Part shown: in pieces, positions 3,849-20,342 of the stretch
How positions within the stretch are numbered: the first letter of the stretch is position 1
Layout: every line of letters starts with the position of its first letter
DNA from: Elusimicrobiota bacterium
GTDB lineage: Bacteria; Elusimicrobiota; Elusimicrobia; F11
Direction: 5' to 3'
DNA: 22,406 nucleotides
Assembly (NCBI GenBank): GCA_046153645.1
Contig: JBJXGI010000006.1
Span: forward strand, 1 to 22,406
Notes under the pieces: generated by a model
Told to the model about the DNA's origin: nothing
Database searches by the model: none
Seen by the model: only the letters and a program-made list of their open reading frames with translations
Translations under genes and position numbers: made by a program

Positions 3849-5645
3849 ATGGTTAAAAAAATTATTGAGAAACTATGGATTTATTGGCGAATCGCCATTG
3901 GACCAATTAAAAGAAGTTTTTTCCTTTTATTGGTGCTGAGTATCTTGGTTAGTCTTTTTGAGTTAAGTGGTTTAACCATGATGATGTCTTTTTTAGATGG
4001 AGTGACCAATCCTGATCGGTTTCTCAAGAGTCAAATAGCTCCTTTTATCAGAACCTTAATCGAAATTTCAGGACTAACCCCTACACGAGAAATGCTGATA
4101 TTTTTCACACTGTGCATCGCAGGAAGTCTATATGTCATTAAAGGTTTTATGGTCTCTCTTAATCAGTACTGTTCGAGTTATATTGCCCATGGTCTCTATA
4201 TTAAAACTAAACAGAGGATTTTTAGTTTCTTTCTAAAAGCCGAATACACTTTTATTTCTGCTAAGGGAAGAGGGGGGATTCTTTCTGACTTGAATCAGCC
4301 TGCTGAAGATATTGAGTTTGCTTTTGTTAATTTGGGGAAAATTATTCTCGAAATGATAACAATTGTGGCTCAGTTGTGTTTCATTTTTTACTTTTCTGGT
4401 TGGATATTCTTTTTTCTGGGAATTATTGCTTTTGGGATTGTTTATTTTTGGAAAAATATTGTTCTTTTAAAGTCTATTCGAATTGGAAGAGAAATATACG
4501 AAGCAAGAACGGATATTTCTAAAACAGAAATTGATGCGATGGATGGTATTAAAGTTGTTAAATCATATATATTGAGTGACAATTTTTTGGGGAAATATAA
4601 AGCTATCCTTGCTCGCGAGTTTAAATCGGCTTTAAATTTAGTTTTACTTAAAACATCACCTACTTTATTTCAGGAAATTGTTGTAATGGGAATGGTTGTT
4701 TCTCTTAGTTATATTTGTTTTTTTGCCCCCTCCTTTGGCCTGACTTTTTCCACTTTAGTGGTTATTTTAATTTCGATTCGTCGTCTTATACCTTCTATAT
4801 CTGGTTTTTTGGTTTCAGCAGTTGAATTAGGGCGGAGATTGAAAGGGGTAGAGCAAATTGAGTCTCTTCTCTATAAAACCCCGATTGAAAGAACAGATGG
4901 AAGAGAAAGGTTGTCTTCTATTGAATCTGTCAAATTTGAAAATGTTTCTTTTCGATATTCAGGGCAATCTAAACCGCCTATTTTAAAAGACCTTAACCTT
5001 CAATTTGAAAAAGGTCGCATGACCGCTTTGGTGGGTCCATCGGGGGCTGGAAAAAGTACGATTGCCAATTTAATTGCGGGTTTTTTTCATAAAGAAAGTG
5101 GTGATATCAAAATAAATGGAATTTCTATCGAAAATATTGCTTTAGAAAGTCTACGTTCCAAGATTGGATATATCAGTCAAGATATTTTCTTATTTAATGA
5201 GTCATTAAAAAATAACATTACACTTTGGCGGTCTAATATAAGTGAAGAACAATTTAATACCGCTATTAAACTTGCACACTTAGAATCAGTGGTTCAGGAT
5301 CTTCCAGGTAAATTTGATACTATTGTTGGCGATAGAGGATTAAAATTGTCTGGTGGACAATGTCAACGTGTCGCCATTGCTCGGGCGATTGTAAATAAAC
5401 CTGATATTTTAATTTTTGACGAAGCAACAAGTGCGCTTGATAATTTGACCGAAAAGATTATTTATGAAGCAATTGATTCTTTTAGGAGTCAAAGTGTCGT
5501 TATCGTTATTGCGCATAGACTTGAGACGATTAAAAATGCTGATCAGATTGTTGTTTTGGAGGGCGGATTTGTTGTTGATCATGGCACCCATGATGAGTTG
5601 ATAAATAAAAATAATTTATACGCGAAATTATATGGAAAGAAATAA
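3849..5645 (+). CDS. ABC transporter permease/ATP-binding fusion (MsbA/PglK-like glycan flippase)
   Basis: Hydrophobic N-terminal TM domain. Walker A GPSGAGKS, Q-loop ISQD, signature LSGGQ, Walker B/D-loop ILIFDEATSALD, H-loop IAHRL. The flippase role is inferred from context. Confidence 0.92.
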   Translation: MVKKIIEKLWIYWRIAIGPIKRSFFLLLVLSILVSLFELSGLTMMMSFLDGVTNPDRFLKSQIAPFIRTLIEISGLTPTREMLIFFTLCIAGSLYVIKGFMVSLNQYCSSYIAHGLYIKTKQRIFSFFLKAEYTFISAKGRGGILSDLNQPAEDIEFAFVNLGKIILEMITIVAQLCFIFYFSGWIFFFLGIIAFGIVYFWKNIVLLKSIRIGREIYEARTDISKTEIDAMDGIKVVKSYILSDNFLGKYKAILAREFKSALNLVLLKTSPTLFQEIVVMGMVVSLSYICFFAPSFGLTFSTLVVILISIRRLIPSISGFLVSAVELGRRLKGVEQIESLLYKTPIERTDGRERLSSIESVKFENVSFRYSGQSKPPILKDLNLQFEKGRMTALVGPSGAGKSTIANLIAGFFHKESGDIKINGISIENIALESLRSKIGYISQDIFLFNESLKNNITLWRSNISEEQFNTAIKLAHLESVVQDLPGKFDTIVGDRGLKLSGGQCQRVAIARAIVNKPDILIFDEATSALDNLTEKIIYEAIDSFRSQSVVIVIAHRLETIKNADQIVVLEGGFVVDHGTHDELINKNNLYAKLYGKK

Positions 5646-6732
5646 GAAAGTTTCAGTCGTTATTCCAACCAAAAATCGCTCTTTCTTCCTAAGAAAAACT
5701 TTGGAATATTATTCACTCACAAACTTTGAACATCAAATTGTTATTGGTGATGCAAGTGATGAAAGTTTCTCTCTTGCTAATCAGAATGAAATAAAAAAAC
5801 ATCCTGAATTGGCTATTAGCTATATAAAATTTAATCCCGATAAACGAATTACTCACTCAATGGTTGAAATGCTAGAAAAGGTGAATACTGACTATTCTTT
5901 GTTCAGTGGTGACGATGATTTTTTTGTTGGCTCTTCTTTATCAAAATGTGCTGATTTTTTAGATAAAAACCCTGATTATTCTGCTGCCTGTGGAGAGCCG
6001 GCTTGGTTGTATCTTAAAAGTGTTGCAGAAGATGTGGTGGAACCTATTTATCTGAAAAGAGGTCCGACCATTGGCTTAGATGGGAATAAACCTTCAGTGC
6101 GTCTCATGACGTATATGAGTCCCAGTCCACTTATTACCACTTTTTCGTTGCAGAGGACTTCTGGTATTTTATATGCATGGAAACATGCCAGTGAAATAAA
6201 TTTAGACCTTAATCGCCATTATTTACCACTTCATGAAATTTCTGTGAATGTAATCCAAATAATTCAAGGAAAACTTAAACTTATACCCGGCCTGTATCAC
6301 TTAATGTTAAGACACAATGACAAAAAACACGATTCTCAAGGAGTTGATGATTATTTCGATAAGGTTTTGAATTGGGACTGGAATCATCATGTCAGAGGAA
6401 TGATTGAATGGTGGGCCAAACAATTTTCTCAGGCAGAAGGATTGGCTTATGAAAAGTCCTTTCATTTTATGTCGGCTTTGTTTATAAGGTTTTCAAATGA
6501 AATGTTAGGTCGTTATTCTAAAAGACGAATAAAAGAGCTTGGGTTTGAAAAAAATAATCCTGCTTATAAGAAACAAATGAGAGATTATCTGATTAAGGTT
6601 CCGGGTTTACAAAAAGCGTGGTTACGTTATAAAGGAATCCAGCAATTTAATTTAGATAATTTTCTCGATCCAAAGTCACGTTTTTATAATGACTTCTATC
6701 CTATGTATCAAACACTATTTTTGAACAAATAA
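5632..6732 (+). CDS. GT-A fold (GT2-like, probably TIGR04440-type) glycosyltransferase, paralogue of 1763-2821
   Basis: VSVVIPTKNR, IGDAS, VNTDYSLFSGDDDFF (DxD), FLDKNPDYSAACG. Confidence 0.82.
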   Translation: MERNKKVSVVIPTKNRSFFLRKTLEYYSLTNFEHQIVIGDASDESFSLANQNEIKKHPELAISYIKFNPDKRITHSMVEMLEKVNTDYSLFSGDDDFFVGSSLSKCADFLDKNPDYSAACGEPAWLYLKSVAEDVVEPIYLKRGPTIGLDGNKPSVRLMTYMSPSPLITTFSLQRTSGILYAWKHASEINLDLNRHYLPLHEISVNVIQIIQGKLKLIPGLYHLMLRHNDKKHDSQGVDDYFDKVLNWDWNHHVRGMIEWWAKQFSQAEGLAYEKSFHFMSALFIRFSNEMLGRYSKRRIKELGFEKNNPAYKKQMRDYLIKVPGLQKAWLRYKGIQQFNLDNFLDPKSRFYNDFYPMYQTLFLNK

Positions 6733-6736
6733 CCCC

Positions 6737-6765
6737 TTGACTCTATTGCTGGATTGCGGTATGTT
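6737..6765 (+). promoter_or_regulatory. Sigma70-type promoter
   Basis: TTGACT (6737-6742), a 17-bp spacer and TATGTT (6760-6765), in the only large intergenic gap of the window. Predicted +1 is about 6772. Confidence 0.7.
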
Positions 6766-6779: not shown

Positions 6780-6799
6780 TAATGGGAAAGTTAATATTT

Positions 6800-7342
6800 A
6801 TGGATGAAAAGTCCTTTAATATTCTTAACCTTATTTCTGAGTTTCCAGGTCTTACTCAGCGTGATTTAGCTAAGAAAACAGGTTTTTCTATTGGCTTGGT
6901 TAATTTGGTTCTTAAACGCCTTGCTTCTACTGGCCACATCAAAATAAAAAATCTCAATAAAAAAAAGATTTATTACTTACTTACTCCAAAAGGTTTTTTG
7001 GAACAATCCAGGCGTTCCTATAAATACCTCTCAAAAACCATTCGTGTTTTCTTTGACTATCAAGCTGCCGTTAGTGATTTGGTCGACTCCCTGTTCCAAG
7101 ATAAAAAAAGTCGTGTGGCAATTATCGGCCGAAATGAAATATCTGAACTTCTCGAAGTTGTTATAAAAAATAAAGGATATTCACTAAAATATCGTTTTAT
7201 TGAAGAAAGAGAGAAAATTGAATCAGATGAATTACTGTTGGATTGTAGGGCTCAGATAAAGGGGAACCCAAAGCAATACGGTGTTCGAATTTTGGAAGAA
7301 TTGTTACATAAAAAAAACGGTCATGTTATGAATAAAATATGA
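6800..7342 (+). CDS. Winged helix-turn-helix transcriptional regulator (polysaccharide-locus-associated MarR-like) with a C-terminal alpha/beta extension
   Basis: LTQRDLAKKTGFSIGLVNLVLKRL (HTH) and KKIYYLLTPKG (wing). The C-terminal RVAIIGRNEISELL is a Rossmann-like strand-helix. An alternative in-frame ATG lies at 6782. Confidence 0.88.
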   Translation: MDEKSFNILNLISEFPGLTQRDLAKKTGFSIGLVNLVLKRLASTGHIKIKNLNKKKIYYLLTPKGFLEQSRRSYKYLSKTIRVFFDYQAAVSDLVDSLFQDKKSRVAIIGRNEISELLEVVIKNKGYSLKYRFIEEREKIESDELLLDCRAQIKGNPKQYGVRILEELLHKKNGHVMNKI

Positions 7343-8334
7343 GAAATTCAAAGTCGTCAGTTTTGGTAATTGGATCTGGGGAACTAGGGAGTCGTCATTT
7401 ACAAGCTATTTGTCAGATTCCATATCTTGAACGTATTGATGTGTTAGATCAGAGAATTGAGGCGCTAAACGTTGCTCGCAGCAGAGTTGAGTCTATTTCG
7501 AATAGAAATAAATTTATTGAATATCAATGGATCCAAGACATATCAAAAATTTCTTCCCAATATGATTTGATTGTTGTCGCTACTCAGGCGACGGAGCGAG
7601 TTCAAATAATCAAAGAATTAATTGCTAAAAATATTTCACGGAAATTTTTTATTGAAAAGGTTGTGGCACAATCAACCTCTGAATATGAATCATTATTGTC
7701 TGTTTGTGAGAAAAATAACATAAAAATTTGGGTCAATTTAAAATCCAGATTGCACCCATCACATTTGAGGGTAAAACAAAAATTAAACTCTGAAGAGAAA
7801 ATTGTTTTTCATGTGCTTGGTGGAAATCATGGTTTGGGTAATAACGGCGTTCATGTTGCCGATTTATTTATTTATTTCTCAAACCAAAAGAAAATAAATC
7901 TACAAAAAGAATCAATCGATCTTATTTTGCATCGATCTAAACGATCCAATGAAATATTTGATCTATCTGGAGAACTTTACGGAAACACCGATAAAGGTGA
8001 CTCGTTTTTCTTGAGTTTTCAAAAGGATAATCTCGCTTTTCCCTTATTTTATATCTCATCTGCCTCCTATCGCGCAATTGTTGATGATTCCAATAAATGG
8101 ATGTTAGAGGCAACGGAAGCCGGTAAATGGAAGTGGGAGCCATATAACATTGATAAAAATATAATGGTGAGCGAATTGTCAACCGTCATCGTCTCAGATA
8201 TTTTAACTAAACAACAATGTTCACTTCCTCTTTTGGATGAAGCTTATGGTTCTCATCAGTTTATACTAGATGCATTGCATCCCACTTTCAAGAAATTGAT
8301 TAAAAACGATTTAGAGCTGTGCCCTATTACATAA
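7339..8334 (+). CDS. Gfo/Idh/MocA family NAD(P)-dependent oxidoreductase
   Basis: VLVIGSGELGSRHLQA Rossmann motif, DLIVVATQA, and IEKVV (EKP-like motif). ATGA overlap. Confidence 0.78.
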   Translation: MRNSKSSVLVIGSGELGSRHLQAICQIPYLERIDVLDQRIEALNVARSRVESISNRNKFIEYQWIQDISKISSQYDLIVVATQATERVQIIKELIAKNISRKFFIEKVVAQSTSEYESLLSVCEKNNIKIWVNLKSRLHPSHLRVKQKLNSEEKIVFHVLGGNHGLGNNGVHVADLFIYFSNQKKINLQKESIDLILHRSKRSNEIFDLSGELYGNTDKGDSFFLSFQKDNLAFPLFYISSASYRAIVDDSNKWMLEATEAGKWKWEPYNIDKNIMVSELSTVIVSDILTKQQCSLPLLDEAYGSHQFILDALHPTFKKLIKNDLELCPIT

Positions 8335-8336
8335 AT

Positions 8337-9341
8337 ATGAATAAATTCCTTTCATCAAAAGAGGTGGTTGAAAATTTAAAATCATCTTCTTTTAAATATC
8401 ATGAAGTGATTATTGTCGGTTTTGGATATATGGGGAAAGAATATGTGAAGGCGGCGCAATCTTTAGGTTTTGGTCAAATTACAGTATATACTCGCACGAA
8501 ACCAAAAGAATCTCCTAAAGGTATCAAAATTGTTTCTGGCGGTTTTGAAAAACTTCCAGTCTCTACAAATAATAAGAATTTGGTTATTGTCGCAGTGAGC
8601 ACAGACTTGCTCCTTTTGGCATCTGAGTGGATAATTAAGCAAGGTTATAAAAATATTTTGTGTGAGAAACCGGTATCACTTTGGTCCACACAAATTGAAG
8701 AACTAAATAAAATGGTTCTTCATGAAAAAGTTTCTTTTTATTGTGCTTTTAATCGAATCGCATTCCCTTCTGTTATTGAGGCTCGCTATCAATGTGATTT
8801 GTTGGGTGGGGTTACTTCTTGTCGATACTCATTTACGGAGTTGGCGAAGCGACTCAATTTAAGCTTATATAGTGAAAGTGAGAAAAAACGATGGGGAATT
8901 GCTAATAGTATTCATGTTTTAAGTTTGGCACACGCTGTGATTGGAAACCCTCGTACATGGAATTCTGTTCATGGAGGGGCATTGGATTGGCACCCCTCCG
9001 GTAGTTATTTTATTGGTTCAGGGATTTCTGTGGATAATATCCCTTTTAGTTTTTTTTCTGATTGGGGTTCTTCCGATCGATGGTCAGTTGAATTTTTTAC
9101 TTCTGGCGCTGCTTTTAGATTATGCCCCTTAGAAAAACTATATTTGAAAGAAAGTTCACTGGTTGACTGGAAAGAATGCGCTGTTTCTGTTTGTGATTCT
9201 AACACCAAGCCTGGACTTTTGGAACAGATGGCGGCTATTCTATTTCCAGAAAAATGTCCCATTCCGCTTTTCCAATTAGATAAATTAGCGCAGTTGGTTC
9301 AATTTAGCGAAAATATTTTTGGTTATAGTGAGGGCTTATGA
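8337..9341 (+). CDS. Gfo/Idh/MocA family NAD(P)-dependent oxidoreductase
   Basis: IIVGFGYMGKEY, ILCEKP, AFNR. ATG 8337, two nt after the upstream stop, is preferred over the track's GTG 8319. Confidence 0.78.
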   Translation: MNKFLSSKEVVENLKSSSFKYHEVIIVGFGYMGKEYVKAAQSLGFGQITVYTRTKPKESPKGIKIVSGGFEKLPVSTNNKNLVIVAVSTDLLLLASEWIIKQGYKNILCEKPVSLWSTQIEELNKMVLHEKVSFYCAFNRIAFPSVIEARYQCDLLGGVTSCRYSFTELAKRLNLSLYSESEKKRWGIANSIHVLSLAHAVIGNPRTWNSVHGGALDWHPSGSYFIGSGISVDNIPFSFFSDWGSSDRWSVEFFTSGAAFRLCPLEKLYLKESSLVDWKECAVSVCDSNTKPGLLEQMAAILFPEKCPIPLFQLDKLAQLVQFSENIFGYSEGL

Positions 9342-10042
9342 TTAAAAAAGCACTTATTACAGGCGGAACGAGAGGAATTGGTTATGCTATTGCTGAAATC
9401 CTGATTAAAAAAGGGTATTTGGTCACAGTGACAGGGACACAAAAGAATGGACGGGGCCCGGCTCAAAGTCTCTATCTTCCATGTGATTTTAATAATGAAA
9501 AATCGCTAGCAGATTTTTTATTAACCATAACAAATGAAAATTGGGATGTTTTAGTTAATAATGCGGGAATCAATAAAATTGGTCCAATGGATGAATATGA
9601 TTTTAACGACTTTCAGAAAATTCAATTTGTGAATGTTCATGTTCCCTTTCTGATAACTAAAGCTGTTCTTCCCTCTATGAAAAAGAGAAAATATGGACGT
9701 ATTTTAAATATTACATCTATTTTCGGTGTGGTTAGTCGCGCGGAACGTTCTGCTTATTCAACAAGTAAATTTGGATTGCAAGGAATGACCAAAGCACTTG
9801 CACTAGAAGTCGCAAAAGATGGTATTTTGGTGAATTGTTTGGCTCCTGGGTTTGTGGATACAACACTGACAAGGAAAATTCTCAAAAATAAGGGAATCAA
9901 AGAAATTTCGAAATCAATTCCGATGGGACGTTTAGCTAAAGCAGATGAAATTGGAAAAGCCGCAGGGTTTTTACTCAGCGAAGAAAACTCTTATATGACA
10001 GGCCAAAATATTATTATTGATGGAGGTTTTACCTGTGCCTGA
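9338..10042 (+). CDS. Short-chain dehydrogenase/reductase (classical SDR, FabG-like)
   Basis: TGGTRGIG, VLVNNAG, NITS, YSTSK (YxxxK), VNCLAPGFVDT, TGQNIIIDGG. Confidence 0.92.
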   Translation: MIKKALITGGTRGIGYAIAEILIKKGYLVTVTGTQKNGRGPAQSLYLPCDFNNEKSLADFLLTITNENWDVLVNNAGINKIGPMDEYDFNDFQKIQFVNVHVPFLITKAVLPSMKKRKYGRILNITSIFGVVSRAERSAYSTSKFGLQGMTKALALEVAKDGILVNCLAPGFVDTTLTRKILKNKGIKEISKSIPMGRLAKADEIGKAAGFLLSEENSYMTGQNIIIDGGFTCA

Positions 10043-11111
10043 TGATTTGATTATCCAGTCATATAAAGGCCCCTATAAGGTTGTTTTTGGAAAACTTTTT
10101 GATGGTCTGGAAAATGGATTGGGAGAGAAAGACCACTTACTTATTGATTCAAAAGTTGCCTCTCTTTACGCTGGACCATTATCTAAAGCATTGAATTCTC
10201 ATTCCGTTTTAAAAATTGAAGCCCTTGAAACGAATAAATCATTAGAAAAAATTCCTGAATACGTTACTTTTCTTTTAGAAAAGGGTATCAAACGTGATCA
10301 TCGACTGGTTGTTATTGGTGGAGGAATTGTCCAGGACATTGCAGCCTTTATGGCATCTTGTCTGTTGCGTGGTCTTCCCTGGGTATTTTATCCAACCACC
10401 TTGTTAGCTCAATCTGATTCTTGTATTGGTTCAAAGTCATCCATTAATGTGGGAAAGTATAAAAATCAAGTGGGGACATTCACGCCCCCAACTGAAATTC
10501 GAATTTCACTCGATTTGCTGCAATCACTTTCCGCTCAAGAAGTTAAATCTGGAATTGGTGAAATGATTAAGGTTCATGTTATTGCTGGATGGGAAGATAT
10601 TCGTCGAATTTCGAAAAATTATACAGAGTTGTTTAATAATCAAAATTTACTTGCCCAAACTTTACATCGTTCACTTGAGATAAAAAAAGGAAAAATTGAA
10701 ATAGATGAGTTTGATCAGAAAGAAAGATTGATTATGAATTATGGGCATACTTTTGGTCATGCTATTGAAAGTGCCACTCAGTTCTCTATTCCACATGGAA
10801 TCGCTGTCACTATTGGCATGGACTTAGCCAATTGGGTTTCTTGGAAAATCGGTTTAATTGATAAATCCGTATTTGATGAGCTTCATTCTGTCATGCTTGC
10901 TAACTATGATGGATATCAATCCGTTTATATTCCTTTTGAAAAATTCTTTTCATCATTAGCGAAAGATAAGAAAAATTTAGGAGGAGACATTTCACTTATT
11001 CTTCTGAGAGCGCCTGGACAGGTATATTTACATCGACATCCCAATAACCAGACTTTAAAAGATTTATGTCTATCTTTTTTTGAAACTATGAAAGTAAGAG
11101 TGGCTGTATGA
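10035..11111 (+). CDS. AroB-related sugar-phosphate cyclase (3-dehydroquinate synthase superfamily)
   Basis: GGGIVQD, PTTLLAQSDSCIGSKSSIN, KNQVGTF, EMIK, NYGHTFGHAIE and PHGIAV (metal-ligand E/H/H pattern), DKKN. GTG 10035 has GGAGG at 10022-10026. Confidence 0.88.
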   Translation: MPDDLIIQSYKGPYKVVFGKLFDGLENGLGEKDHLLIDSKVASLYAGPLSKALNSHSVLKIEALETNKSLEKIPEYVTFLLEKGIKRDHRLVVIGGGIVQDIAAFMASCLLRGLPWVFYPTTLLAQSDSCIGSKSSINVGKYKNQVGTFTPPTEIRISLDLLQSLSAQEVKSGIGEMIKVHVIAGWEDIRRISKNYTELFNNQNLLAQTLHRSLEIKKGKIEIDEFDQKERLIMNYGHTFGHAIESATQFSIPHGIAVTIGMDLANWVSWKIGLIDKSVFDELHSVMLANYDGYQSVYIPFEKFFSSLAKDKKNLGGDISLILLRAPGQVYLHRHPNNQTLKDLCLSFFETMKVRVAV

Positions 11112-12106
11112 TTAACGTCGGAATCATCGGCTTGGGGAAAATGGGTCAAATTAGAAAGGCTGCGGTTGAATCGACTGGCAGAGGTCAGATATTGGCTGCT
11201 TCAGATCCTGTGATAAAATTGAACGATAAAAATATTAAAGACTATCCAAATCCTGAGCAGGTCATTTCAGATTCTTCTATTGATACCATTTTTATTTGCA
11301 CACCCAATTACATGAACAAAGATCTCACTATAAAAGGGTTAGAGGCTGGAAAAAATATTTTTTGTGAAAAACCGCCAGCTTTTTCTGCTAAAGATATTGA
11401 AGAAATTATAGAAGTCGAAAAAAAATCCGGTAAGAAATTAATGTATGGGTTTAATCATCGACATCACGACAGCGTTATTCTTGCTAAACAGAAAATTGAT
11501 TCCGGTCAATATGGGAAAATTTTGTGGATGAGAGGACGGTATGGGAAAAGTGTAGATGAAAATTTTTTTAAAAATTGGCGTTCCAAAAAAGAATTGGCTG
11601 GTGGGGGGATTCTCATTGATCAAGGAATTCATATGTTGGATCTTTTTCTGATGATGGCTGGTGATTTTGAAGAGGTTCATGCATTTGTTTCTAATCTTTA
11701 CTGGAAATTAGATGTTGAAGATAATGTATTTGCCATTTTAAAAAACAAAAATGGAGTTGCTGCTTCTCTCCACTCGACAATGACTCAGTGGCGACATTTA
11801 TTTTCTTTGGAGGTTTTTTTGGAGAAAGGATATTTCGTTATCAATGGCTTATTAACTTCCTCAGGAACTTATGGACAGGAAACTATGACGATTGCCACTA
11901 ATCGAAGCGTTGCTCCTGCTGCGATATGGAGTGATGAGGAACATTTAAAATTTGAAATTAATAATTCTTGGAATTATGAAATCGGACATTTTTTTGATGC
12001 CATTGACAGAAATACGGCGGTAAAGATTGGGCATTCTGATGACGCATTAAAAGTGATGAGACTGGTTGATAAAATCTATTTACAAAATAATAAAGGAGTC
12101 AATTAA
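11108..12106 (+). CDS. Gfo/Idh/MocA family oxidoreductase
   Basis: VGIIGLGKMG, ICTPN, IFCEKP, GFNHR, GGGILIDQGIHMLD. Confidence 0.92.
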   Translation: MINVGIIGLGKMGQIRKAAVESTGRGQILAASDPVIKLNDKNIKDYPNPEQVISDSSIDTIFICTPNYMNKDLTIKGLEAGKNIFCEKPPAFSAKDIEEIIEVEKKSGKKLMYGFNHRHHDSVILAKQKIDSGQYGKILWMRGRYGKSVDENFFKNWRSKKELAGGGILIDQGIHMLDLFLMMAGDFEEVHAFVSNLYWKLDVEDNVFAILKNKNGVAASLHSTMTQWRHLFSLEVFLEKGYFVINGLLTSSGTYGQETMTIATNRSVAPAAIWSDEEHLKFEINNSWNYEIGHFFDAIDRNTAVKIGHSDDALKVMRLVDKIYLQNNKGVN

Positions 12107-12107
12107 T

Positions 12108-12656
12108 ATGGAAAGAAAAGAGTGGTTCAACACATATCTTGAACAGTATAAGTCTACGGTTATTAATCCGGGAATATATAAGGATTTAAGTACTTTGACC
12201 GATTGGGTTTATGAAGCCAATAAAAACGGTAAAAAAACTATTTTCGCTGGAAATGGTGGTAGTGCCGTTATCTCAAGCCATGCTGCTGTCGACTTTACCA
12301 AGACAGCTGCGGTCCGTGCGATTAACTTCAATGAAGGCGATCTCATCACATGTCTGGGGAATGATTATGGATATGAGTGGTGGGTCCAGAAAGCCATTGA
12401 GTTCTATGCTGATCCTGGAGACGTTATCGTTTTAATTTCATCAAGTGGAAAATCTCCCAATATAATTAATGCGGCTAAATATGCCAAAGAAAAAGGATTT
12501 AAATTGGCGACGTTTAGTGGTTTTGCTCAAACCAATCCACTTAATCAATTGGGTAATTTAAATTTCTGGGTTAATAGCCAACAATACAATGTGATCGAAA
12601 ATACTCACCTCATCTGGATTCTGGCTGTTTGTGACATAGTTATAGCTGAGCATTGA
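12108..12656 (+). CDS. SIS-domain phosphosugar isomerase (GmhA/phosphoheptose isomerase-like, divergent)
   Basis: FAGNGGSA, GNDYGY, GDVIVLISSSGKSPNII. ATG 12108 with AAGGAG at 12093-12098 is preferred over the track's start at 12066. Confidence 0.85.
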   Translation: MERKEWFNTYLEQYKSTVINPGIYKDLSTLTDWVYEANKNGKKTIFAGNGGSAVISSHAAVDFTKTAAVRAINFNEGDLITCLGNDYGYEWWVQKAIEFYADPGDVIVLISSSGKSPNIINAAKYAKEKGFKLATFSGFAQTNPLNQLGNLNFWVNSQQYNVIENTHLIWILAVCDIVIAEH

Positions 12657-13742
12657 ATGAGACCCCAGGGGTTTGTGGAAATAAACGAAAGGAAAATTAT
12701 CCGCTCACACCAGATTCTTCCTCAAGTTGTTTTTGTGGGAGGACATCCAGGTTGTGGAAAAACAATGCTGACGCCGATTCTTGGAAGTATGAATCGGGTG
12801 GAAATTCAAAAGTATAACTATCCCATGGAATATATGGCGCAATTAGAATTTCTAGGGAAAATGACGCCTGATTCGGCAACAGCCATGGTCCGCATGCTTT
12901 TGGATATTGATATTTACAATATGTCGATGTCAAGAGAAGTAAACTTTCGTTATTCTGATCTTTCATCTGTTTTTCAAAACCCCAACCCATGGCGTTACTT
13001 TAAAAGATCCATTGGCAAAGGGGATGAGGTTGTTCTAGCGAAAATTAAAACTGAAAAACCTATTCTTCAAATAGTCACACATAACTTGTTAGCACTTTCT
13101 CAAACCTTGTTTAATTCATTGGGTGAGCGGATGACGGTTTTAGAGGTTATTCGGCATCCGCTTTACATGTTAAAACAGTGGTTTTTATATGTGGAAAGAT
13201 ATGGGACTGATGTGAGGGATTTTACTATCTGGTTTGAATATCAAGGTAAACAGTTGCCTTTTTTCGCGAAAGGATGGGAAGAAAAGTTTCTCAATTGTAA
13301 CAGTATGGACCGTGTTATTTATTCTATTTCGCAATTGGCACAGATGGGGGGAAAAAATATGGCTCAGCTTTCTCCTACTTTAAAAGACAGAATTCTTTTT
13401 ATTCCTTTTGAGAGGTTTGTTCTCAATCCTTATCCCTTTATCGATAAAATTGAAAATCTTTTAAATACACAGCGAACACCCGCCACGATAAAAGAGTTGA
13501 AACGTCAAAAAGTGCCACGACAAAAAGTGGCTGATGGCATATCCCTTCCTATTTATAAGTTAAATGGCTGGCAGTCTCCAAAGCAAGGTTCTTCGGAAAA
13601 AGAAGAATTACAATCAAGATGGGCTTTTGCTAAAGAAAAAGCTTCGCCGGAAGGATTGGCTTTACTCAAAAGAATGTGTGATACATATGAAGAGGAAAAT
13701 GTTCCAGAGTGGAAAGGTTTTATAGATGAGGTTTATAAATGA
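12657..13742 (+). CDS. P-loop protein with sulfotransferase-like features (putative sulfotransferase or kinase)
   Basis: VVFVGGHPGCGKTML P-loop. EVIRHPL resembles the 'vRdP' motif and ILFIPFERFVLNP the 'vrYEdlv.dP' motif of bacterial sulfotransferase-fold proteins. Confidence 0.6.
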   Translation: MRPQGFVEINERKIIRSHQILPQVVFVGGHPGCGKTMLTPILGSMNRVEIQKYNYPMEYMAQLEFLGKMTPDSATAMVRMLLDIDIYNMSMSREVNFRYSDLSSVFQNPNPWRYFKRSIGKGDEVVLAKIKTEKPILQIVTHNLLALSQTLFNSLGERMTVLEVIRHPLYMLKQWFLYVERYGTDVRDFTIWFEYQGKQLPFFAKGWEEKFLNCNSMDRVIYSISQLAQMGGKNMAQLSPTLKDRILFIPFERFVLNPYPFIDKIENLLNTQRTPATIKELKRQKVPRQKVADGISLPIYKLNGWQSPKQGSSEKEELQSRWAFAKEKASPEGLALLKRMCDTYEEENVPEWKGFIDEVYK

Positions 13743-14914
13743 AAAAGATTGCGATGATTCCTGCTCTATTAGGTAGCCAGAGAATTCCTGATAAAAATCT
13801 TATTTTGGTTGACGGATATCCGATGATGTTTCGCGTGGTTGAGGCTTGTAAAACCTCAGGGATTTTCGATGAGATTTATATTAATTCTGAACATCTCATA
13901 TTTAGAGATTGGGCGCAGATGCTGGGTGTTAAGTTCTATGAACGCCCCAACTCTCGCGGTGGATCAAATTGCGAAATGAAAAATAAGTCGCGGCAATGTA
14001 ATAAAGATCGTTGTCAAACTCATGATCACTTTCTTTATGATTTTATGACTTATTTAAAAGAACCAGTCCATTTGGCTTTAATTCATACCACATCCCCACT
14101 ATTAAAAGGTGTAACCATAAAGAAGTTTATGCAAACTTTGGAAAAAGAAAATTATGATTCACTTTTTTCAGTAGAACATAAATACACCGAGACACTGTTT
14201 GCTGGAAAACCTTTGAATTTTTCTTTTGCGGAGAAAATCCCTACTCAGACACTTCCTCCCATTGAAATGATTACTTGGGCTATGACTGGTTGGAAAACAG
14301 ACTCATTTATCAAGTCATATGACCGAGATGATAAAAAAGAAAATGGACCGACGTACTGCGGAAAAATGGGCACCTATTTGTTAGATCGTATTGAAGCCAT
14401 TGATGTTGATAATTTTGAAGATCTAGCAATGGCTGAAGCTTCTTTGCAATATCGTCGCCATAAGGTTGTGCCGGGTCAGTTTAAAGTGCCAGAGGGCTTT
14501 CAAGGGGTCGAGAGTTGTTTGGTCGATCTCATCCGAAGAGATGGCGTAACAAAGTTCGTAAATGAATCGGCCAATTCTCGGCATAGTAATTTAGATGAAA
14601 TCAAAAAGATGATGGGGCCGCCGCCATGGATTTATGTTTTGGTTTATTCTGCGACAGATCAAACGGGTCTTATTTGCCAAAAGCCTGGCGAAGGATGTCG
14701 TAAACATTTCCATGCCACACATGATGAGTGGTGGGTTGTTTTAGAAGGACAGTTTGAATGGGTTTTAGGAGATGGCACAAAAATTCTTACTAAAAAAGGA
14801 GACGTGGTTTGTATTCCTAAGGCAATGCCGCACCAAATTACCTGTGTTGGAACAGAGCCAGGTATTCGAATGGCCAATGGCGGTCGCGATATGGATCACG
14901 TTTACATCAAATGA
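13739..14914 (+). CDS. NeuA/KdsB-like cytidylyltransferase fused to a C-terminal metal-binding cupin
   Basis: IAMIPALLGSQRIPDKNL, IYINSE, HTTSPLL, EAIDVDNFEDL. The cupin carries GEGCRKHFHATHDEWWVVLEG (G-x5-HxH-x4-E-x6-G) and GDVVCIPKAMPH. Confidence 0.82.
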   Translation: MKKIAMIPALLGSQRIPDKNLILVDGYPMMFRVVEACKTSGIFDEIYINSEHLIFRDWAQMLGVKFYERPNSRGGSNCEMKNKSRQCNKDRCQTHDHFLYDFMTYLKEPVHLALIHTTSPLLKGVTIKKFMQTLEKENYDSLFSVEHKYTETLFAGKPLNFSFAEKIPTQTLPPIEMITWAMTGWKTDSFIKSYDRDDKKENGPTYCGKMGTYLLDRIEAIDVDNFEDLAMAEASLQYRRHKVVPGQFKVPEGFQGVESCLVDLIRRDGVTKFVNESANSRHSNLDEIKKMMGPPPWIYVLVYSATDQTGLICQKPGEGCRKHFHATHDEWWVVLEGQFEWVLGDGTKILTKKGDVVCIPKAMPHQITCVGTEPGIRMANGGRDMDHVYIK

Positions 14915-15603
14915 AGAAAGTAGTCATTATCACGGGAGCCTCTCGCGGAATTGGGGCTTCCTGCGCCAAATTACTTGACGCTCATGGATATGAAGTCGTG
15001 AAAGTTTCTCTTCATAAAAAAGATGCTCGTTCATTGATTTGTGATGTTCAAAAAGAACCCTCTGTTAAAAGTACAGTTCAAAAGATTTTAAAGAAATATA
15101 AAAGAATTGATGCTCTTGTAAATTGCGCTGGGGTTGTCTCTTTTTCATCTTCGCTCAAAACAACTCAAACTGAATGGGAACGAGTGATGGGTGTTAATCT
15201 CTTGGGCACCTACTATTTTTCTAAACATGTCATACCTCAAATGAAAAAACAAAAAAGCGGAAGAATCGTTAACATTTCTTCTATTGCAGGGAGACTTTAT
15301 AGTCGTATGGCATCCCTTCCTTATACTTGTTCTAAGTACGCGGTTATTGGGCTTACCAAACAAATGGCAGCTGAATTTGCTCAAGATGGTATTACAATCA
15401 ATTGTTTATGCCCTTCACAAACAAAGACCGATATGATTTCAAAGAATTTTTCTCAATCTCAAATTGAGCAGATGATAAAAAAAATTCCGGTGGGCAGATT
15501 GGCCCATCCATCAGAAATTGCTCATGTTATTCACTTTCTTTTGTCCGAACAGGCGTCCTATATGAATGGAAGTATTATTGACGTAAATGGTGGACAGTTG
15601 TAA
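14911..15603 (+). CDS. Short-chain dehydrogenase/reductase (classical SDR)
   Basis: TGASRGIG, LVNCAG, NISS, YTCSK, INCLCPS, GSIIDVNGG. Confidence 0.92.
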   Translation: MKKVVIITGASRGIGASCAKLLDAHGYEVVKVSLHKKDARSLICDVQKEPSVKSTVQKILKKYKRIDALVNCAGVVSFSSSLKTTQTEWERVMGVNLLGTYYFSKHVIPQMKKQKSGRIVNISSIAGRLYSRMASLPYTCSKYAVIGLTKQMAAEFAQDGITINCLCPSQTKTDMISKNFSQSQIEQMIKKIPVGRLAHPSEIAHVIHFLLSEQASYMNGSIIDVNGGQL

Positions 15604-16613
15604 TGGGTTCTTTTTCACCAAGCATTTCTACAAGTGAAATGGTTGGTGTCATTGGAACCGGTAGTATAGGGACTCGTCATCTAGAAATTTTAAAGTCTTT
15701 TGAAAAAATTCGCCCCGTTTGTTTTTCTAAACGAGCTTCTCGGAAAAAAGAATTATTTGCGCAGGGATATTCAATTGTCGATTCGGTTCTCGAAATGAAG
15801 AAATTGGGTGTAAAAGCGGCGATTATTGCCACCGATACAAAAGAACATTTCCGGTATGTTGAAGAGTGTTTGGAAGCGGGCATGGACGTATTGGTTGAGA
15901 AACCATTGGCCATAGATGCTAAAGAAGCCAAAAAAATAGCTCAGCTTTCAGAGAAATTATCGAGGAAAGTATATGTTGGGTGCGTGATGAGATTCTCTTT
16001 GAGTTTGAGAGAATTTATTCGTTGTTTAAAAGAAATGGGAAAAATTTATTCTGTTCGAGTTGAGTGTCAATCTTATTTACCAGCATGGAGACCGGAAAGA
16101 AATTATAAAGAGGCTTATTCTGCTCGGAAAGAAGAAGGTGGGGTTTTAAGAGATTTGGTTCATGAGATTGATTATACAGGTTGGATTTTTGGTTGGCCCG
16201 ATTCTTTACAGGCTCATTTGGGAAACACAGGTGTCCTTGGAATTGAATCTGAAGAATTTGCAGATATCTCATGGAACATTTCGCCCTATACCAGCGTCTC
16301 TATGCGCTTGGACTATTTATCAAACCCTCCTAGAAGAGGAATAATTGTTACTGGGGAAAAAGGGGTTCTTGAGTGGGATGGGATAAAAAATTCTGTTTGT
16401 TTTACTTCAAATGAAGGTAGAAATGAATGGGAAAGTGGTGAAAATCAAAACGCGAAATATGAAATGCAATTAAATAGCTTTTGTGAGGCGGTATTTTCAG
16501 GAAAAACTTCGGGTCTATTGGCCACGGTAGTCGATGGCGTTAAAGCCATGTTAGTGATAGAAGCCGCTAGGCTTGCTTCAATGAATAAAAAAGAGATGGA
16601 GATTAGCTACTAG
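15603..16613 (+). CDS. Gfo/Idh/MocA oxidoreductase of the type found in nonulosonic acid clusters (PtmF-like)
   Basis: VIGTGSIGTRH, LVEKP, and SYLPAWRPERNYKEAYSARKEEGGVLRDLVHEIDY. TAATG overlap with the upstream gene. Confidence 0.85.
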   Translation: MGSFSPSISTSEMVGVIGTGSIGTRHLEILKSFEKIRPVCFSKRASRKKELFAQGYSIVDSVLEMKKLGVKAAIIATDTKEHFRYVEECLEAGMDVLVEKPLAIDAKEAKKIAQLSEKLSRKVYVGCVMRFSLSLREFIRCLKEMGKIYSVRVECQSYLPAWRPERNYKEAYSARKEEGGVLRDLVHEIDYTGWIFGWPDSLQAHLGNTGVLGIESEEFADISWNISPYTSVSMRLDYLSNPPRRGIIVTGEKGVLEWDGIKNSVCFTSNEGRNEWESGENQNAKYEMQLNSFCEAVFSGKTSGLLATVVDGVKAMLVIEAARLASMNKKEMEISY

Positions 16614-17356
16614 TGGATACGGAGACAGGAATCGTCGCAATTATTCCAGCCAGATCAGGGTCAAAAGGGTTGCCTGGGAAAAACATTCGACCCTTTATGG
16701 GGATTCCTTTGATTGCCCACTCTATTTTATTAGCCAAGAGTTGCATGGAAGTACAAAGAATTATTGTAAGTACTGATTCTCCTCAAGTTTCAGAAGTCGC
16801 AAAAAAATATGGTGCAGAAGTTCCCTTTGTGCGCCCTACTGAATTGGCTCAGGATGATACGGCCCTTTGGCCGGTGATTCGACATGCGTTATCTCAAATC
16901 GAAATAAAAGGGGATCAGTATCGTTATGTGATGCTCTTAGATCCCACGACACCGTGTCGTCACCCACAATATGTGTACGAGTGTTATCAAAGACTTTTAA
17001 TTAATCCTGAAGCCGATGGAATTATTGGTGTTTCCAAACCGGACTTTAATCCTCTTTGGCATTCGGTTGTAGAAAAAAATGGTTGGATGGAAAACCTGAT
17101 GCCCGAAAGCGAACAAATCAATCGTAGGCAAGACGCGCCAGATATTTTTCGAATTAACGGGTCTATTTATATTTGGAGAACAGAATTTGTCAGAGAAAGA
17201 GAAGATGGTTGGCGGAAAAATGGAAAATATTTAATGTATGAAACGCCTGATTTTGCCTCCATTTCAATTGATACTCTAGATGAGTTTAACCGAGCTGAAT
17301 TATTTGTTCGAGAAGGTTTATTTGAATTCCCATGGCTTCAAAAACAGGTGAAATAA
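16613..17356 (+). CDS. neuA: CMP-nonulosonic acid synthetase (acylneuraminate cytidylyltransferase, NeuA/LegF/PtmB type)
   Basis: IIPARSGSKGLPGKNI, VSTDS, GAEVPFVRPTELAQD, LDPTTP, RRQD, INGSIY, SIDTLDEF. GTG start overlaps the upstream TAG. Confidence 0.92.
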   Translation: MDTETGIVAIIPARSGSKGLPGKNIRPFMGIPLIAHSILLAKSCMEVQRIIVSTDSPQVSEVAKKYGAEVPFVRPTELAQDDTALWPVIRHALSQIEIKGDQYRYVMLLDPTTPCRHPQYVYECYQRLLINPEADGIIGVSKPDFNPLWHSVVEKNGWMENLMPESEQINRRQDAPDIFRINGSIYIWRTEFVREREDGWRKNGKYLMYETPDFASISIDTLDEFNRAELFVREGLFEFPWLQKQVK

Positions 17357-17359
17357 TTT

Positions 17360-18163
17360 ATGAAAACAATACTTCAAAAAATTGATTTGACTGGAAAAAA
17401 GGTTCTTATTGCTGGTGGTGCGGGGCATTTGGGAAAAATGATGGCTCATTCCTTAGTAGAGTTAGGCGCAAATGTGATGTTAGTTGATTTAGTAAAAAAA
17501 GATTTAGTTCTCGTTCAAAAAGAATTGGACAAAATTAGATTTGGCGCGTCCCGATTTTTAGTTTGTGATATTTCTAATGAAAAAGACTTAAGAAAAAACA
17601 TGAAGCTTGCCATTAAAGAATTATCGGGCTTAGATATATTGATTCATTCTGCCGCATTTGTAGGAACGACGAAATTCCCCGGATGGGCCGTTCCCTTTGA
17701 AAGTCAAAGCGTCAAAGCCTTGGACGCTTCATTAAAGGTGAACATGACGTCTGCTTTTATATTGGCACAAGAAGCGCAAAAAGCTTTATTAAAATCATCA
17801 TCTGCTAGCATTATTTTTATTTCATCTATATATGGAATGGTTGGCCCTGATATGAGTCTTTATGAAGGGACAAAAATGGCCAATCCTGCTGGGTATAATG
17901 CCTCTAAAGGGGGAGTTCTTCAACTCACTCGATATTTATCAACTGTTTTGGCTCCCAGCATTCGTGTTAATGCTATTTCTCCTGGTGGCATTTGGAGGAA
18001 TCAGCCTAAGTCTTTTGTAAAAAAATATTCAGAACGTACACCTTTAAAAAGAATGGCCACAGAAGACGATATTGTGGGAGCCGTAATTTTCTTGGCCAGT
18101 GGACTTTCATCTTATGTGACCGGTCAAAATATTGTGGTTGATGGTGGTTGGACCGCATGGTAA
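17360..18163 (+). CDS. SDR oxidoreductase of nonulosonic acid clusters (PtmA-like)
   Basis: AGGAGHLG, ISSIYGMVGPDMSLYEGT, YNASKGG, VNAISPGGIWRNQPKSF, TGQNIVVDGGWTAW. Confidence 0.85.
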   Translation: MKTILQKIDLTGKKVLIAGGAGHLGKMMAHSLVELGANVMLVDLVKKDLVLVQKELDKIRFGASRFLVCDISNEKDLRKNMKLAIKELSGLDILIHSAAFVGTTKFPGWAVPFESQSVKALDASLKVNMTSAFILAQEAQKALLKSSSASIIFISSIYGMVGPDMSLYEGTKMANPAGYNASKGGVLQLTRYLSTVLAPSIRVNAISPGGIWRNQPKSFVKKYSERTPLKRMATEDDIVGAVIFLASGLSSYVTGQNIVVDGGWTAW

Positions 18164-19185
18164 AGATAGGATTTAAGTACCCTTGTTTCGTTATTGCTGA
18201 AGCTGGGGTTAATCATAATGGAAGCCTTCGGCTTGCTAAGAAGCTTGTTCTGGCCGCCAAAAAGGCCGGCGCCGATGCGGTAAAGTTTCAAACCTTCTCT
18301 GCGGATCGTTTGGTTTTATCAAGTGCGCCTAAAGCTGAATATCAAAAGAAAAATACTCGAAATTCTGAAACACAATATCAGATGCTCAAAAAACTAGAGC
18401 TTTCCAAGAGCGATCATATCGCCTTAAAAAAGTTTTCGATGAAAAATAAGATTTTGTTTTTGTCTTCAGCCTTCGACGAAGAAAGTTTAGCGTTACTTGA
18501 AAATCTAGATATTTCGATTCATAAGATTGCTTCAGGTGAAATAACCAATTTGCCTTTTTTGGAGAAAGTGGGAAAAACAAAGAAACCAGTTATTCTTTCC
18601 ACTGGAATGAGTAATTTAACTGAAGTTAAACGCGCTGTTCAAATTTTAAAGAAAAATGGGTCTAAACAAATTATTGTTTTGCATTGTTTGAGCCAGTATC
18701 CAGCAAATTTAAGTGAAATTAATCTACGGGCCATGAATACGCTTAATAAATCGTTATTTTTACCCGTTGGATATTCTGATCACTCTTTGGGAATTTTTAT
18801 TCCGCTGGCGGCTGTCGCTTTGGGTGCCTGTGTTATTGAAAAACATTTAACTTTGAATAAGAAACTAGAAGGTCCGGATCATGCCGCTTCTTTAGAACCA
18901 CATGAGTTTTTTCAAATGGTAAAAGGAATTCGAGGTGTCGAAAAAGCATTAGGAACAGATATAAAAAAAGTACAACCTTCTGAAATGAATACGAAAATGG
19001 TTGCGCGAAAGAGTATTGTGATAAAAAATTCTTTGAAGAAAGGTGAAAAAACAAATCGAAATACTTTTGTCATGATGCGCCCTGGAACAGGTTTAAGCCC
19101 TTTTGAAATAAACCGATTTATTGGGAAAAAAGCCAAATTTAATTTGAAGGCAGGTGTTCAACTTCAGCCTGGAATGTTGCGATGA
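18157..19185 (+). CDS. neuB: Nonulosonic acid synthase (NeuB/LegI type) with C-terminal SAF/antifreeze-like domain
   Basis: IAEAGVNHNG, DAVKFQTF, KIASGEITN, LSTGM, LHCLSQYP, GYSDHSLG, IEKHLTL, GPDHAASLEP, RPGTGLSP. ATG 18157 is preferred over TTG 18148. Confidence 0.95.
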   Translation: MVKIGFKYPCFVIAEAGVNHNGSLRLAKKLVLAAKKAGADAVKFQTFSADRLVLSSAPKAEYQKKNTRNSETQYQMLKKLELSKSDHIALKKFSMKNKILFLSSAFDEESLALLENLDISIHKIASGEITNLPFLEKVGKTKKPVILSTGMSNLTEVKRAVQILKKNGSKQIIVLHCLSQYPANLSEINLRAMNTLNKSLFLPVGYSDHSLGIFIPLAAVALGACVIEKHLTLNKKLEGPDHAASLEPHEFFQMVKGIRGVEKALGTDIKKVQPSEMNTKMVARKSIVIKNSLKKGEKTNRNTFVMMRPGTGLSPFEINRFIGKKAKFNLKAGVQLQPGMLR

Positions 19186-20339: not shown

Positions 20340-20342
20340 ATT

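Follow-up and report, generated by a model that had tools for sequence, protein, structure and literature searches.

The window analysed here, a stretch of 22,406 nt that makes up the whole of contig C42 of an Elusimicrobiota bacterium, carries at positions 7339..15603 a block of nine genes for a surface-glycan building block. In order, these encode two oxidoreductases of the Gfo/Idh/MocA family (Gfo1 and Gfo2), a short-chain dehydrogenase/reductase (SDR1), a relative of the 3-dehydroquinate synthase (DHQS) AroB, a third Gfo/Idh/MocA enzyme (Gfo3), a SIS isomerase, a P-loop protein, a cytidylyltransferase fused to a cupin and a second SDR (SDR2). On balance we think that the block makes a CMP-activated 7-deoxy-heptulosonate, the AroB-like enzyme and its SDR together deoxygenating C7 of a heptulosonate 7-phosphate. 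The predicted product is thus a new sialic-acid-like seven-carbon sugar, and not the carbocycle proposed in an original prediction made from the letters of the window. This reading draws, in part by analogy, on the membership of the enzyme in one clade with those of mycobacterial caryophyllose biosynthesis, on a control with loci that carry a phosphatase, on the pairing with an SDR, on activation by a NeuA-type enzyme and on Maf-like genes in related viral cassettes. All nine open reading frames (ORFs) were found on the + strand in the predicted order, and coordinates, families and overlaps agree with nine tightly coupled genes, which overlap or abut their neighbours throughout.

An AroB-like enzyme apart from AroB and the known cyclases

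The AroB-like enzyme scored 445 bits against TIGR04425 (cut-off 400) and 254 bits against the aroB model TIGR01357, below its cut-off of 305; the canonical housekeeping aroB of the same genome lies on contig C40 and, with 342 bits, exceeds that cut-off. TIGR04425, a hypothetical equivalog in NCBIfam whose name, a provisional label, implies a 'cyclizing' enzyme, was passed in 9 of the 301 genomes of a phylum sample, and 20 of the phylum matches were fetched. [quoted passage not shown] Outside it fell the 6 AroB and 6 aro-operon sequences, together with L109, which was counted as Type II. The window's enzyme and the mycobacterial-type L137 and L138 lie inside a 50-sequence subclade (0.987). Type I and Type II enzymes are interleaved in the 70-sequence clade. 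Nearly all Type I and Type II enzymes carry the clade marks Q106 and C136, and mostly F232 too, and the two marks are found in 0 of the 12 AroB or aro-operon sequences. The missed aroB cut-off, the separate clade and the true aroB on contig C40 all bear out the claim that this relative of AroB is not an ordinary housekeeping DHQ synthase.

The predicted structure (predicted local distance difference test score, pLDDT, 94) has the DHQS fold (Z 40.1, root-mean-square deviation (rmsd) 2.6 over 342 residues), and its nearest solved structures are DHQS. DOIS (Z 38.0) and ValA (Z 36.6) share this fold, which does not separate cyclising from non-cyclising enzymes. In the alignment the enzyme keeps the NAD loop, the metal ligands E182, H244 and H260, and the substrate residues K140, N150, K185, K223, R237, N241, H248 and K318, whose roles we take to be those of the Aspergillus nidulans DHQS. 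The fingerprints of the other cyclases are absent. [quoted passage not shown] It has DE at 230-231 and DKK at 317-319, as in DHQS, whereas 2-epi-valiolone synthase (EVS) sequences, which were compared by eye and lie outside the alignment and tree, have DP and no DKK. Searches of plasmid and phage records with the protein returned only distant AroB, DOIS and S7P cyclases, and no annotated copy of the module. Judged from these sequence features and their context, the enzyme is likely a phospho-lyase that carries out a non-cyclising deoxygenation at C7.

Cassette types and the caryophyllose parallel

We counted 75 cellular loci, the window included and loci with an AroB-like match below 110 bits or 250 residues left out: 24 of Type I, 38 of Type II, 6 aro operons and 7 unassigned. 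Type I loci have a thiamine diphosphate (ThDP) enzyme, CDP-3,6-dideoxyhexose genes and an aldolase or NeuB-like synthase, often with an FGGY kinase, and Type II loci are those with Gfo3 or a NeuA-like gene. The viral loci are the best 80 of 191 matches and comprise 36 of Type I and 43 of Type II, viral contigs thus carrying both cassette types; the metagenome loci, found from the P-loop side, are the best 80 of 290 matches. Related loci are not independent, and all locus counts are descriptive. The glycan-locus context of the AroB-like gene is kept across phyla and phages. An SDR lies directly upstream of it in 22 of 24 Type I and 36 of 38 Type II cellular loci (58 of 62 in all), and in none of the 6 aro operons; in the viral loci an SDR adjoins it in 34 of 36 cassettes of Type I and 35 of 43 of Type II. 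This near-constant partner, SDR1 in the window, likely acts by reducing the ketone that results once the phosphate is gone. Of the seven viral Type II cassettes that lack an SDR, six carry a DegT aminotransferase gene directly upstream of the AroB-like gene. As a side observation, the aro-operon AroB genes of L021-L026 are near-identical across records titled as three phyla (e.g. L023 and L024), which suggests mis-binning or recent transfer.

Since Type I loci resembled the caryophyllose pathway, we predicted an AroB-like/SDR pair in the lipooligosaccharide (LOS) locus of Mycobacterium marinum, and the pair was found there: the accessible text of PMC12395582 lists a kinase (2328), a 'DHQ synthase family' protein (2329), an SDR (2330), an aldolase (2331) and a ThDP enzyme (2332). 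The gene order of L138 is that of this sub-cluster. Its enzyme is 86% identical to the M. marinum protein P0131, which shares a cluster with AroB_2 of strain M; P0131 is 36% identical to the window's enzyme and scores 311 bits against TIGR04425, below the cut-off of 400. According to the available part of PMC9306805, MMAR_2332 takes open-chain hydroxy-2-oxo acids and prefers a (4R) donor, and 2331-2333 mutants make no caryophyllose; the cluster of Rhodopseudomonas palustris CGA009 is given there with a branch identical to the caryophyllose one. The same part does not mention the AroB-like gene and assumes a ready-made deoxy aldehyde, the word 'dehydroquinate' occurring 0 times in its main text and being absent from the supplement as far as these are accessible. 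The caryophyllose branch is given as D-altro-1,3,4,5-tetrahydroxyhexyl in the accessible text of PMC5706390, so caryophyllose is acyclic and ends in CH3. [quoted passage not shown] Because the ThDP enzyme needs an open-chain acid, a ring product would be useless to it, and the simplest job for the AroB-like enzyme and its SDR would be to convert the C7 phosphate end into a methyl group.

The ThDP enzyme also provided a control, as 14 of 400 genomes of the same genus matched it and 12 loci were fetched. An AroB-like paralogue was present in at least 3 of the 400 genomes at 1e-55, a search that missed true paralogues in G778 and G538. Two of the 12 loci (L226, L230) have the order aldolase-SDR-AroB-like-kinase; L228 has the aldolase, with the remainder about 20 kb off in L137, and L236 is cut off. 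Three others (L232, L233, L234) carry a NeuB-like synthase and a haloacid dehalogenase (HAD) phosphatase and no AroB-like gene, and L231 and L235 differ from the other ThDP loci. The ThDP protein of L234 falls into one 90% cluster with entries from M. gastri, whose branch is described as highly hydroxylated in the available part of PMC9306805. The only AroB relative in the L234 genome is the housekeeping aroB (125 bits vs 718 for the G778 paralogue). By analogy, and for two sugars only, the choice between a phosphatase and the AroB-like/SDR pair may parallel that between a CH2OH end, as presumed for the M. gastri sugar, and a CH3 end.

Core and accessory genes of the block

All 36 viral Type I cassettes have an aldolase or synthase and all 36 an SDR, and none has a SIS gene. 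The 43 of Type II contain SIS (40), cytidylyltransferase (41), SDR (36), class III aminotransferase (30) and Maf-like (20) genes, and only rarely Gfo3 (2) or a 2-hydroxyacid dehydrogenase (2), with neither an aldolase or synthase nor the P-loop gene in any. This phage cassette content points to a core of SIS, AroB-like enzyme, a ketone-processing enzyme (SDR or aminotransferase) and NeuA-like enzyme, beside which Gfo1-3, SDR2 and the P-loop protein count as accessory. With no synthase or aldolase in these 43 cassettes, a dedicated AroB paralogue would be required only for a product other than DHQ. The whole set recurs too, in unchanged order in L076 and L079 and with its nine genes reshuffled in L029, and this co-occurrence is far above chance. 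From the P-loop side, the AroB-like gene is present in 30 of the 80 metagenome loci, and in 21 of the 31 that reach at least 10 kb. The co-occurrence across taxa that the original prediction called for is therefore there, and its single module is conserved, but only SIS, AroB-like enzyme, SDR and cytidylyltransferase form the conserved core. Locus conservation, the CTP_transf_3 family and the lack of any paper that we could find likewise uphold a conserved, uncharacterised module for a cytidine-activated surface-glycan building block.

The cytidylyltransferase matches CTP_transf_3 with 50.6 bits (cut-off 22.6), has the SxRxxxKN, T/SP, Q and DxD motifs, and shares S13, R15, K19, N20, T118-P120, Q170 and D224/D228 with the window's own NeuA in the alignment; where CMP-ulosonate synthetases usually have an AR motif, L takes the place of the first R. 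Its best solved relative is CMP-NeuAc synthetase (5e-9), NTP_transferase gave no match, and scores stayed below the cut-offs of the named equivalogs (PseF 59 of 206 bits; KdsB models at most 35 bits). NeuA/KdsB-type enzymes activate a 2-keto acid by linking CMP to its anomeric hydroxyl, a group that a plain carbocycle lacks, and Maf-like transferases use CMP-2-keto-acid donors. The family thus suggests that an anomeric 2-keto acid is activated and not a plain carbocycle, and the cytidylyltransferase-cupin protein likely makes a CMP-glycoside. Together with the absent EEVS and DOIS fingerprints and the open-chain ThDP pathway served by the clade, this leads us to judge the carbocyclic product probably wrong. 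The analogy with validamycin and acarbose, on which it had leaned, breaks down on the nucleotidyltransferase family and on the cyclase fingerprints and clade.

The SIS protein scored 78 bits against the gmhA model TIGR00441 (cut-off 209), with GmhA as best solved relatives (4e-18). At the GmhA zinc-ligand positions the alignment gives H72, D76, E178 and L187, a set other than the H, E, Q and H that we take to be the ligands of GmhA. Its presence where aldolases are absent suggests a part in precursor supply, and it likely acts on a phosphorylated precursor.

Among the oxidoreductases, gfo1 occurs in 7 of 38 cellular Type II loci, and also in loci without an AroB-like gene; gfo2 occurs in 9 of 38, counting the window, and usually adjoins gfo1. 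Gfo3 is found in 36 of 38, partly by the definition of the type, and is about equally near to C1- and C3-oxidising enzymes, its best solved relatives being glucose-fructose oxidoreductase (2e-25) and DgpA (1e-24). SDR2, an accessory gene typical of the window's subtype, reaches at least 200 bits in 7 of 38 Type II loci, and a 2-hydroxyacid dehydrogenase is lacking from all seven. We considered gfo1/gfo2 as a substitute for that dehydrogenase (9 vs 17 loci at strict thresholds, 0 with both and 12 with neither), an idea weakened by L083, with gfo1, gfo2 and an Ldh_2 enzyme, and by L124, with a weak gfo1 match and the dehydrogenase. An obligatory entry from sedoheptulose 7-phosphate through SIS, Gfo3 and the dehydrogenase was dropped, given phage cassettes without Gfo3. 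A compact Type II cassette was seen in L139 (genome G871, of a PPE-bearing genus), with SIS, Gfo3, 2-hydroxyacid dehydrogenase, SDR, AroB-like, HpcH and cytidylyltransferase genes, and its carrier could possibly serve as a cultured model.

The P-loop protein has 843 relatives, but no Pfam or NCBIfam match and nothing significant by sequence among solved structures; only the fold search matched. Its predicted structure (pLDDT 94) resembles tyrosylprotein sulfotransferase (TPST) with Z 15.9 and rmsd 3.5 over 231 residues (Foldseek E 8e-7). It has the sulfotransferase fold and lacks the 5'-phosphosulfate-binding (5'-PSB) loop K/R-S-G-T and the 3'-phosphate-binding (3'-PB) serine of PAPS-dependent sulfotransferases, with Q174 at the presumed serine position. 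Within the family GCGK[TS] is present in 65 of 66 sequences, G29, G34 and K35 in 66 of 66 and Q174 in 64 of 66. These residues suggest that the protein is likely an ATP-dependent kinase, and perhaps the counterpart of the Type I FGGY kinase. From the AroB-like side its gene was found in one Type II locus (L029). Its commonest direct neighbours are SIS, WbuX-like and cytidylyltransferase genes, and legionaminic acid (Leg)-type genes occur in 23 of the 31 P-loop loci of at least 10 kb. HAD genes lie in five P-loop loci without an AroB-like gene in view (L077, L084, L100, L110 and L127), of which L110 ends where one could lie. In L050, L053 and L058, where the AroB-like gene is not in view, the gene after the P-loop gene encodes an acid-sugar dehydratase of the enolase superfamily. 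A Pfam scan of unknown locus genes covered 50 chosen ORFs. A family of 650-700 residues with no Pfam or NCBIfam match occurs in 18 loci (e.g. L141:4615-6717 and L100:18492-20573), with the P-loop gene immediately upstream in 9 of 80, and is a candidate ulosonate transferase.

The nine genes are not a separate unit (Table 1), as marR and gfo1 overlap by 4 bases and SDR2 and the next gene by 1 base. The internal promoter that had been proposed did not hold up: the site at 6737-6765 has 9 of the 12 bases of the consensus and lies in a 49-base gap, but promoter-like sites in the region number 27, against 30.4 +/- 5.6 in shuffled sequence, and are thus not above chance. The downstream NeuABCD pathway is there, with NeuB, NeuC, NeuD and NeuA, but it is larger, of the legionaminic-acid type, and runs onto contig C97, where WbuX-like, CBS-nucleotidyltransferase, dehydratase and DegT genes continue it, acetamidino genes being part of the route. 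The C-terminus of HisH lies at the start of C97, whose end overlaps the start of C100 within an aldolase gene; C89 appears to join at the other side, since the N-terminus of a GHMP kinase at its end fits the C-terminal part encoded at window 3-248. Contigs C89, C42, C97 and C100 are thus likely one long glycan island. Relatives of the first TIGR04440 glycosyltransferase adjoin the block in L052, L057, L065, L076, L079 and others.

Table 1. Features of the window and the basis on which each was assigned
Feature	Position	Strand	Basis
TIGR04440 glycosyltransferase, candidate CMP-sugar transferase	1763..2821	+	119 bits, cut-off 70
Second TIGR04440 glycosyltransferase, candidate transferase	5632..6732	+	147 bits, cut-off 70
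MarR-type regulator of polysaccharide loci, outside the block	6782..7342	+	HTH_24; TIGR04176 62.5 bits, below cut-off 88
Gfo/Idh/MocA oxidoreductase 1, divergent	7339..8334	+	PF01408 E 5e-9
Gfo/Idh/MocA oxidoreductase 2, divergent; alternative start ATG 8337	8319..9341	+	PF01408 E 6.5e-5
SDR1	9338..10042	+	adh_short_C2 E 3e-50
AroB-related putative phospho-lyase, DHQS family	10017..11111	+	TIGR04425 445 bits
Gfo/Idh/MocA oxidoreductase 3	11108..12106	+	Profile match, best solved relatives, locus counts
GmhA-like SIS isomerase, SIS_2; ORF 12066-12656	12108..12656	+	Likely start ATG 12108 after GGAG
P-loop protein, sulfotransferase fold	12657..13742	+	Predicted structure; no Pfam/NCBIfam match
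NeuA/KdsB-type cytidylyltransferase fused to cupin	13739..14914	+	CTP_transf_3 and Cupin_2
SDR2	14911..15603	+	adh_short_C2 E 2e-54
Legionaminic-acid-type pathway (Gfo, NeuA, PtmA-like SDR, NeuB, NeuC, NeuD, HisF/HisH)	15603..22406	+	NeuB, NeuC, NeuD over cut-off

The same island holds a second CMP-acid cassette without an AroB-like gene (C97:8332-12897, L141; C100:1-4543, L140), which has a Gfo3 paralogue, SIS, FkbM methyltransferase, transaldolase, HpcH aldolase, HAD phosphatase, two SDRs, a KdsB-like cytidylyltransferase and a 2-hydroxyacid dehydrogenase. Near the start of the window, 3-1766 encodes the GHMP kinase C-terminus, a NUDIX hydrolase and an Fcl-like epimerase/reductase, which hints at a branch for GDP-heptose or a GDP-deoxyhexose, and 2826-3842 encodes a 338-residue protein with no Pfam or NCBIfam match between the TIGR04440 glycosyltransferase and an ABC flippase.

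Proposed route, alternatives and known systems

We hypothesise that a heptulosonate 7-phosphate (DAHP or a stereoisomer) would come from host metabolism and be adjusted by the SIS protein. The AroB-like enzyme, with its DHQS fold and residues, would then take the DHQS cycle through its first half, with NAD-dependent C5 oxidation, loss of the C7 phosphate and re-reduction, and release, as the caryophyllose locus suggests, an open 6-keto-7-deoxy acid. Its constant neighbour SDR1 would reduce the 6-ketone, by which aldol closure would be blocked, and the NeuA-type domain would turn the acid into a CMP-glycoside, the cupin speculatively aiding ring opening or protonation. The accessory Gfo1-3, SDR2 and P-loop protein could set hydroxyl stereochemistry or add phosphate, and the TIGR04440 glycosyltransferase and the upstream ABC flippase would transfer and export the product. 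More tentatively, and with a little less than even confidence, we extend this to a widespread DHQS branch that gave up ring closure. Together with its SDR, this branch would be a terminal deoxygenase for free sugar-acid phosphates, would explain the methyl end of caryophyllose and would feed a CMP-activated C7 'short sialic acid' in many phyla and phages, to which the window's subtype would add a sulfotransferase-fold protein turned kinase.

Several points weigh against this proposal. In the alignment we found no residue change that would block ring closure, every catalytic residue of DHQS being kept, and the intermediate released by DHQS reportedly cyclises on its own (Bartlett and Satake 1988). 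EVS has equivalents of K250, R264, N268 and H275, so that an acid substrate of the AroB-like enzyme is not proven, and a deoxygenation scheme does not account for the SIS protein. At about 36% identity, function may not be constant within the clade, which bears on any transfer from Type I to Type II. AroB_2 is probably MMAR_2329, an equation based on gene order and identity, and we found no published knockout of MMAR_2329 or 2330. L225, L227 and L229 have a synthase and neither a HAD nor an AroB-like gene within 9 kb, and the CH2OH end of the M. gastri sugar is presumed. The DegT enzyme that replaces the SDR in six viral cassettes recalls the DOIS and aminotransferase of aminocyclitol pathways, and we found no 7-deoxy-heptulosonate glycan in print.

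Some of these points would suit true cyclisation, to a DHQ- or valiolone-type ring. SDR and Gfo enzymes would reduce and epimerise this ring, and the product would be joined to the glycan after cytidylylation, either at the tertiary alpha-hydroxy acid or, once the P-loop kinase has acted, to a CDP-cyclitol. The fold with its full catalytic set, the family name, the likely kinase within the block and the six DegT cassettes agree with this cyclisation. We nevertheless consider it improbable, since the activating enzyme is of the NeuA/KdsB type and not of the phosphate-acting GlgC or IspD type, the Maf-like genes present in 20 of 43 viral cassettes imply that glycosyl groups are transferred from an anomeric centre, the putative kinase is missing from all 43 and from all AroB-side Type II loci except L029, and members of the clade serve an acyclic product. 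We found no link to bradyrhizose or caryose genes, including in the accessible text of PMC3899966.

The enzyme might also not cyclise and yet work on another substrate or towards another product: sedoheptulose 7-phosphate would give a neutral 7-deoxy-heptulose; or SIS would supply heptose 7-phosphate, Gfo3 a heptonate and SDR2 a 3-hydroxy heptulosonate; or the acid would be an acyl group on legionaminic acid. The GmhA-like SIS, the acid-sugar dehydratases or 2-hydroxyacid dehydrogenases of sister cassettes, the transaldolase of the same island and the frequent Leg-type genes of P-loop loci fit such schemes, and EVS, which cyclises neutral sedoheptulose 7-phosphate in a DHQS-like site according to the accessible text of PMC5133447, shows that such sites can accept it. 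Against them stand the DHQS-like DE and DKK residues, the oxidation route, which is not obligatory, as Gfo3 and the dehydrogenase are each present in only 2 of 43 viral cassettes, many Type II loci without Leg genes in view (L007-L010, L139) and the lack of any paper on CMP-ketoses that we could find; we regard this family of schemes as unlikely. An ordinary second DHQ synthase amid a chance assembly of unrelated tailoring genes seems to us very improbable indeed. The intact residues and the nearest solved structures would allow it, but a canonical aroB lies on contig C40, and both the Q106/C136 marks and the conserved glycan-locus context set the enzyme apart.

The characterised enzymes of this fold all make rings in the accessible part of a 2026 review (PMC12904256). 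If the deoxygenation proposal is true, a member whose reaction ends with the deoxy ketone would open a new route to omega-deoxy sugars that needs no nucleotide activation; many genes in glycan loci now labelled 'dehydroquinate synthase' would need another name, and a new class of CMP-ulosonates is predicted, both in phage-encoded cassettes and in the glycans on the surface of uncultured bacteria. A CMP-activated carbocycle, should the original prediction be right, would be at least as new. We found no paper on TIGR04425, this gene set or the role of MMAR_2329, though cluster maps that exist only as figures were not visible to the search and a published mention may exist. MMAR_2329/2330, which belong to an organism that can be cultured and whose product is known, bear on an open step of caryophyllose biosynthesis.

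Compared with known systems, the block enzyme shares with AroB (TIGR01357) the fold, the NAD loop and the metal and substrate residues, and differs from it in its sub-cut-off score, separate clade, Q106, C136 and mostly F232, in its SDR neighbour within a glycan locus and in the true aroB elsewhere. The validamycin/acarbose routes (EEVS, kinase, nucleotidyltransferase) and the DOIS routes are alike in cyclase fold, oxidoreductases and a nucleotidyltransferase, but their M223/D241/P248 and N107/E241 are absent here, and the validamycin/acarbose nucleotidyltransferase is of the sugar-1-phosphate GlgC/NTP_transferase type rather than the NeuA type. Sulfotransferases of the TPST type that use 3'-phosphoadenosine 5'-phosphosulfate (PAPS) have the fold and the R-H-P strand-helix motif in common with the P-loop protein, which has a Walker A GxPGCGK[TS] in place of their GVPRSGTT loop and a Q at the position where a serine is expected. 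The routes to CMP-3-deoxy-D-manno-octulosonate (CMP-Kdo; KdsD/KdsA/KdsC/KdsB) and to CMP-nonulosonates (NeuA/PseF/LegF) resemble the block in SIS, removal of a terminal phosphate, NeuA/KdsB-type activation and the Maf-like genes of sister cassettes; there a HAD enzyme hydrolyses the phosphate, whereas the block likely uses elimination and reduction to give CH3, has no synthase in the cassette and is predicted to make seven carbons. The caryophyllose sub-cluster MMAR_2328-2335 has an AroB-like gene of the same clade directly after an SDR, as in the block, and yields a product with a terminal methyl carbon from a C7 2-oxo acid, as we predict for the block. In that sub-cluster an aldolase makes the acid and the ThDP enzyme grafts it onto a CDP-3,6-dideoxy-4-ketohexose, whereas the block has neither enzyme, and the acid itself would be CMP-activated.

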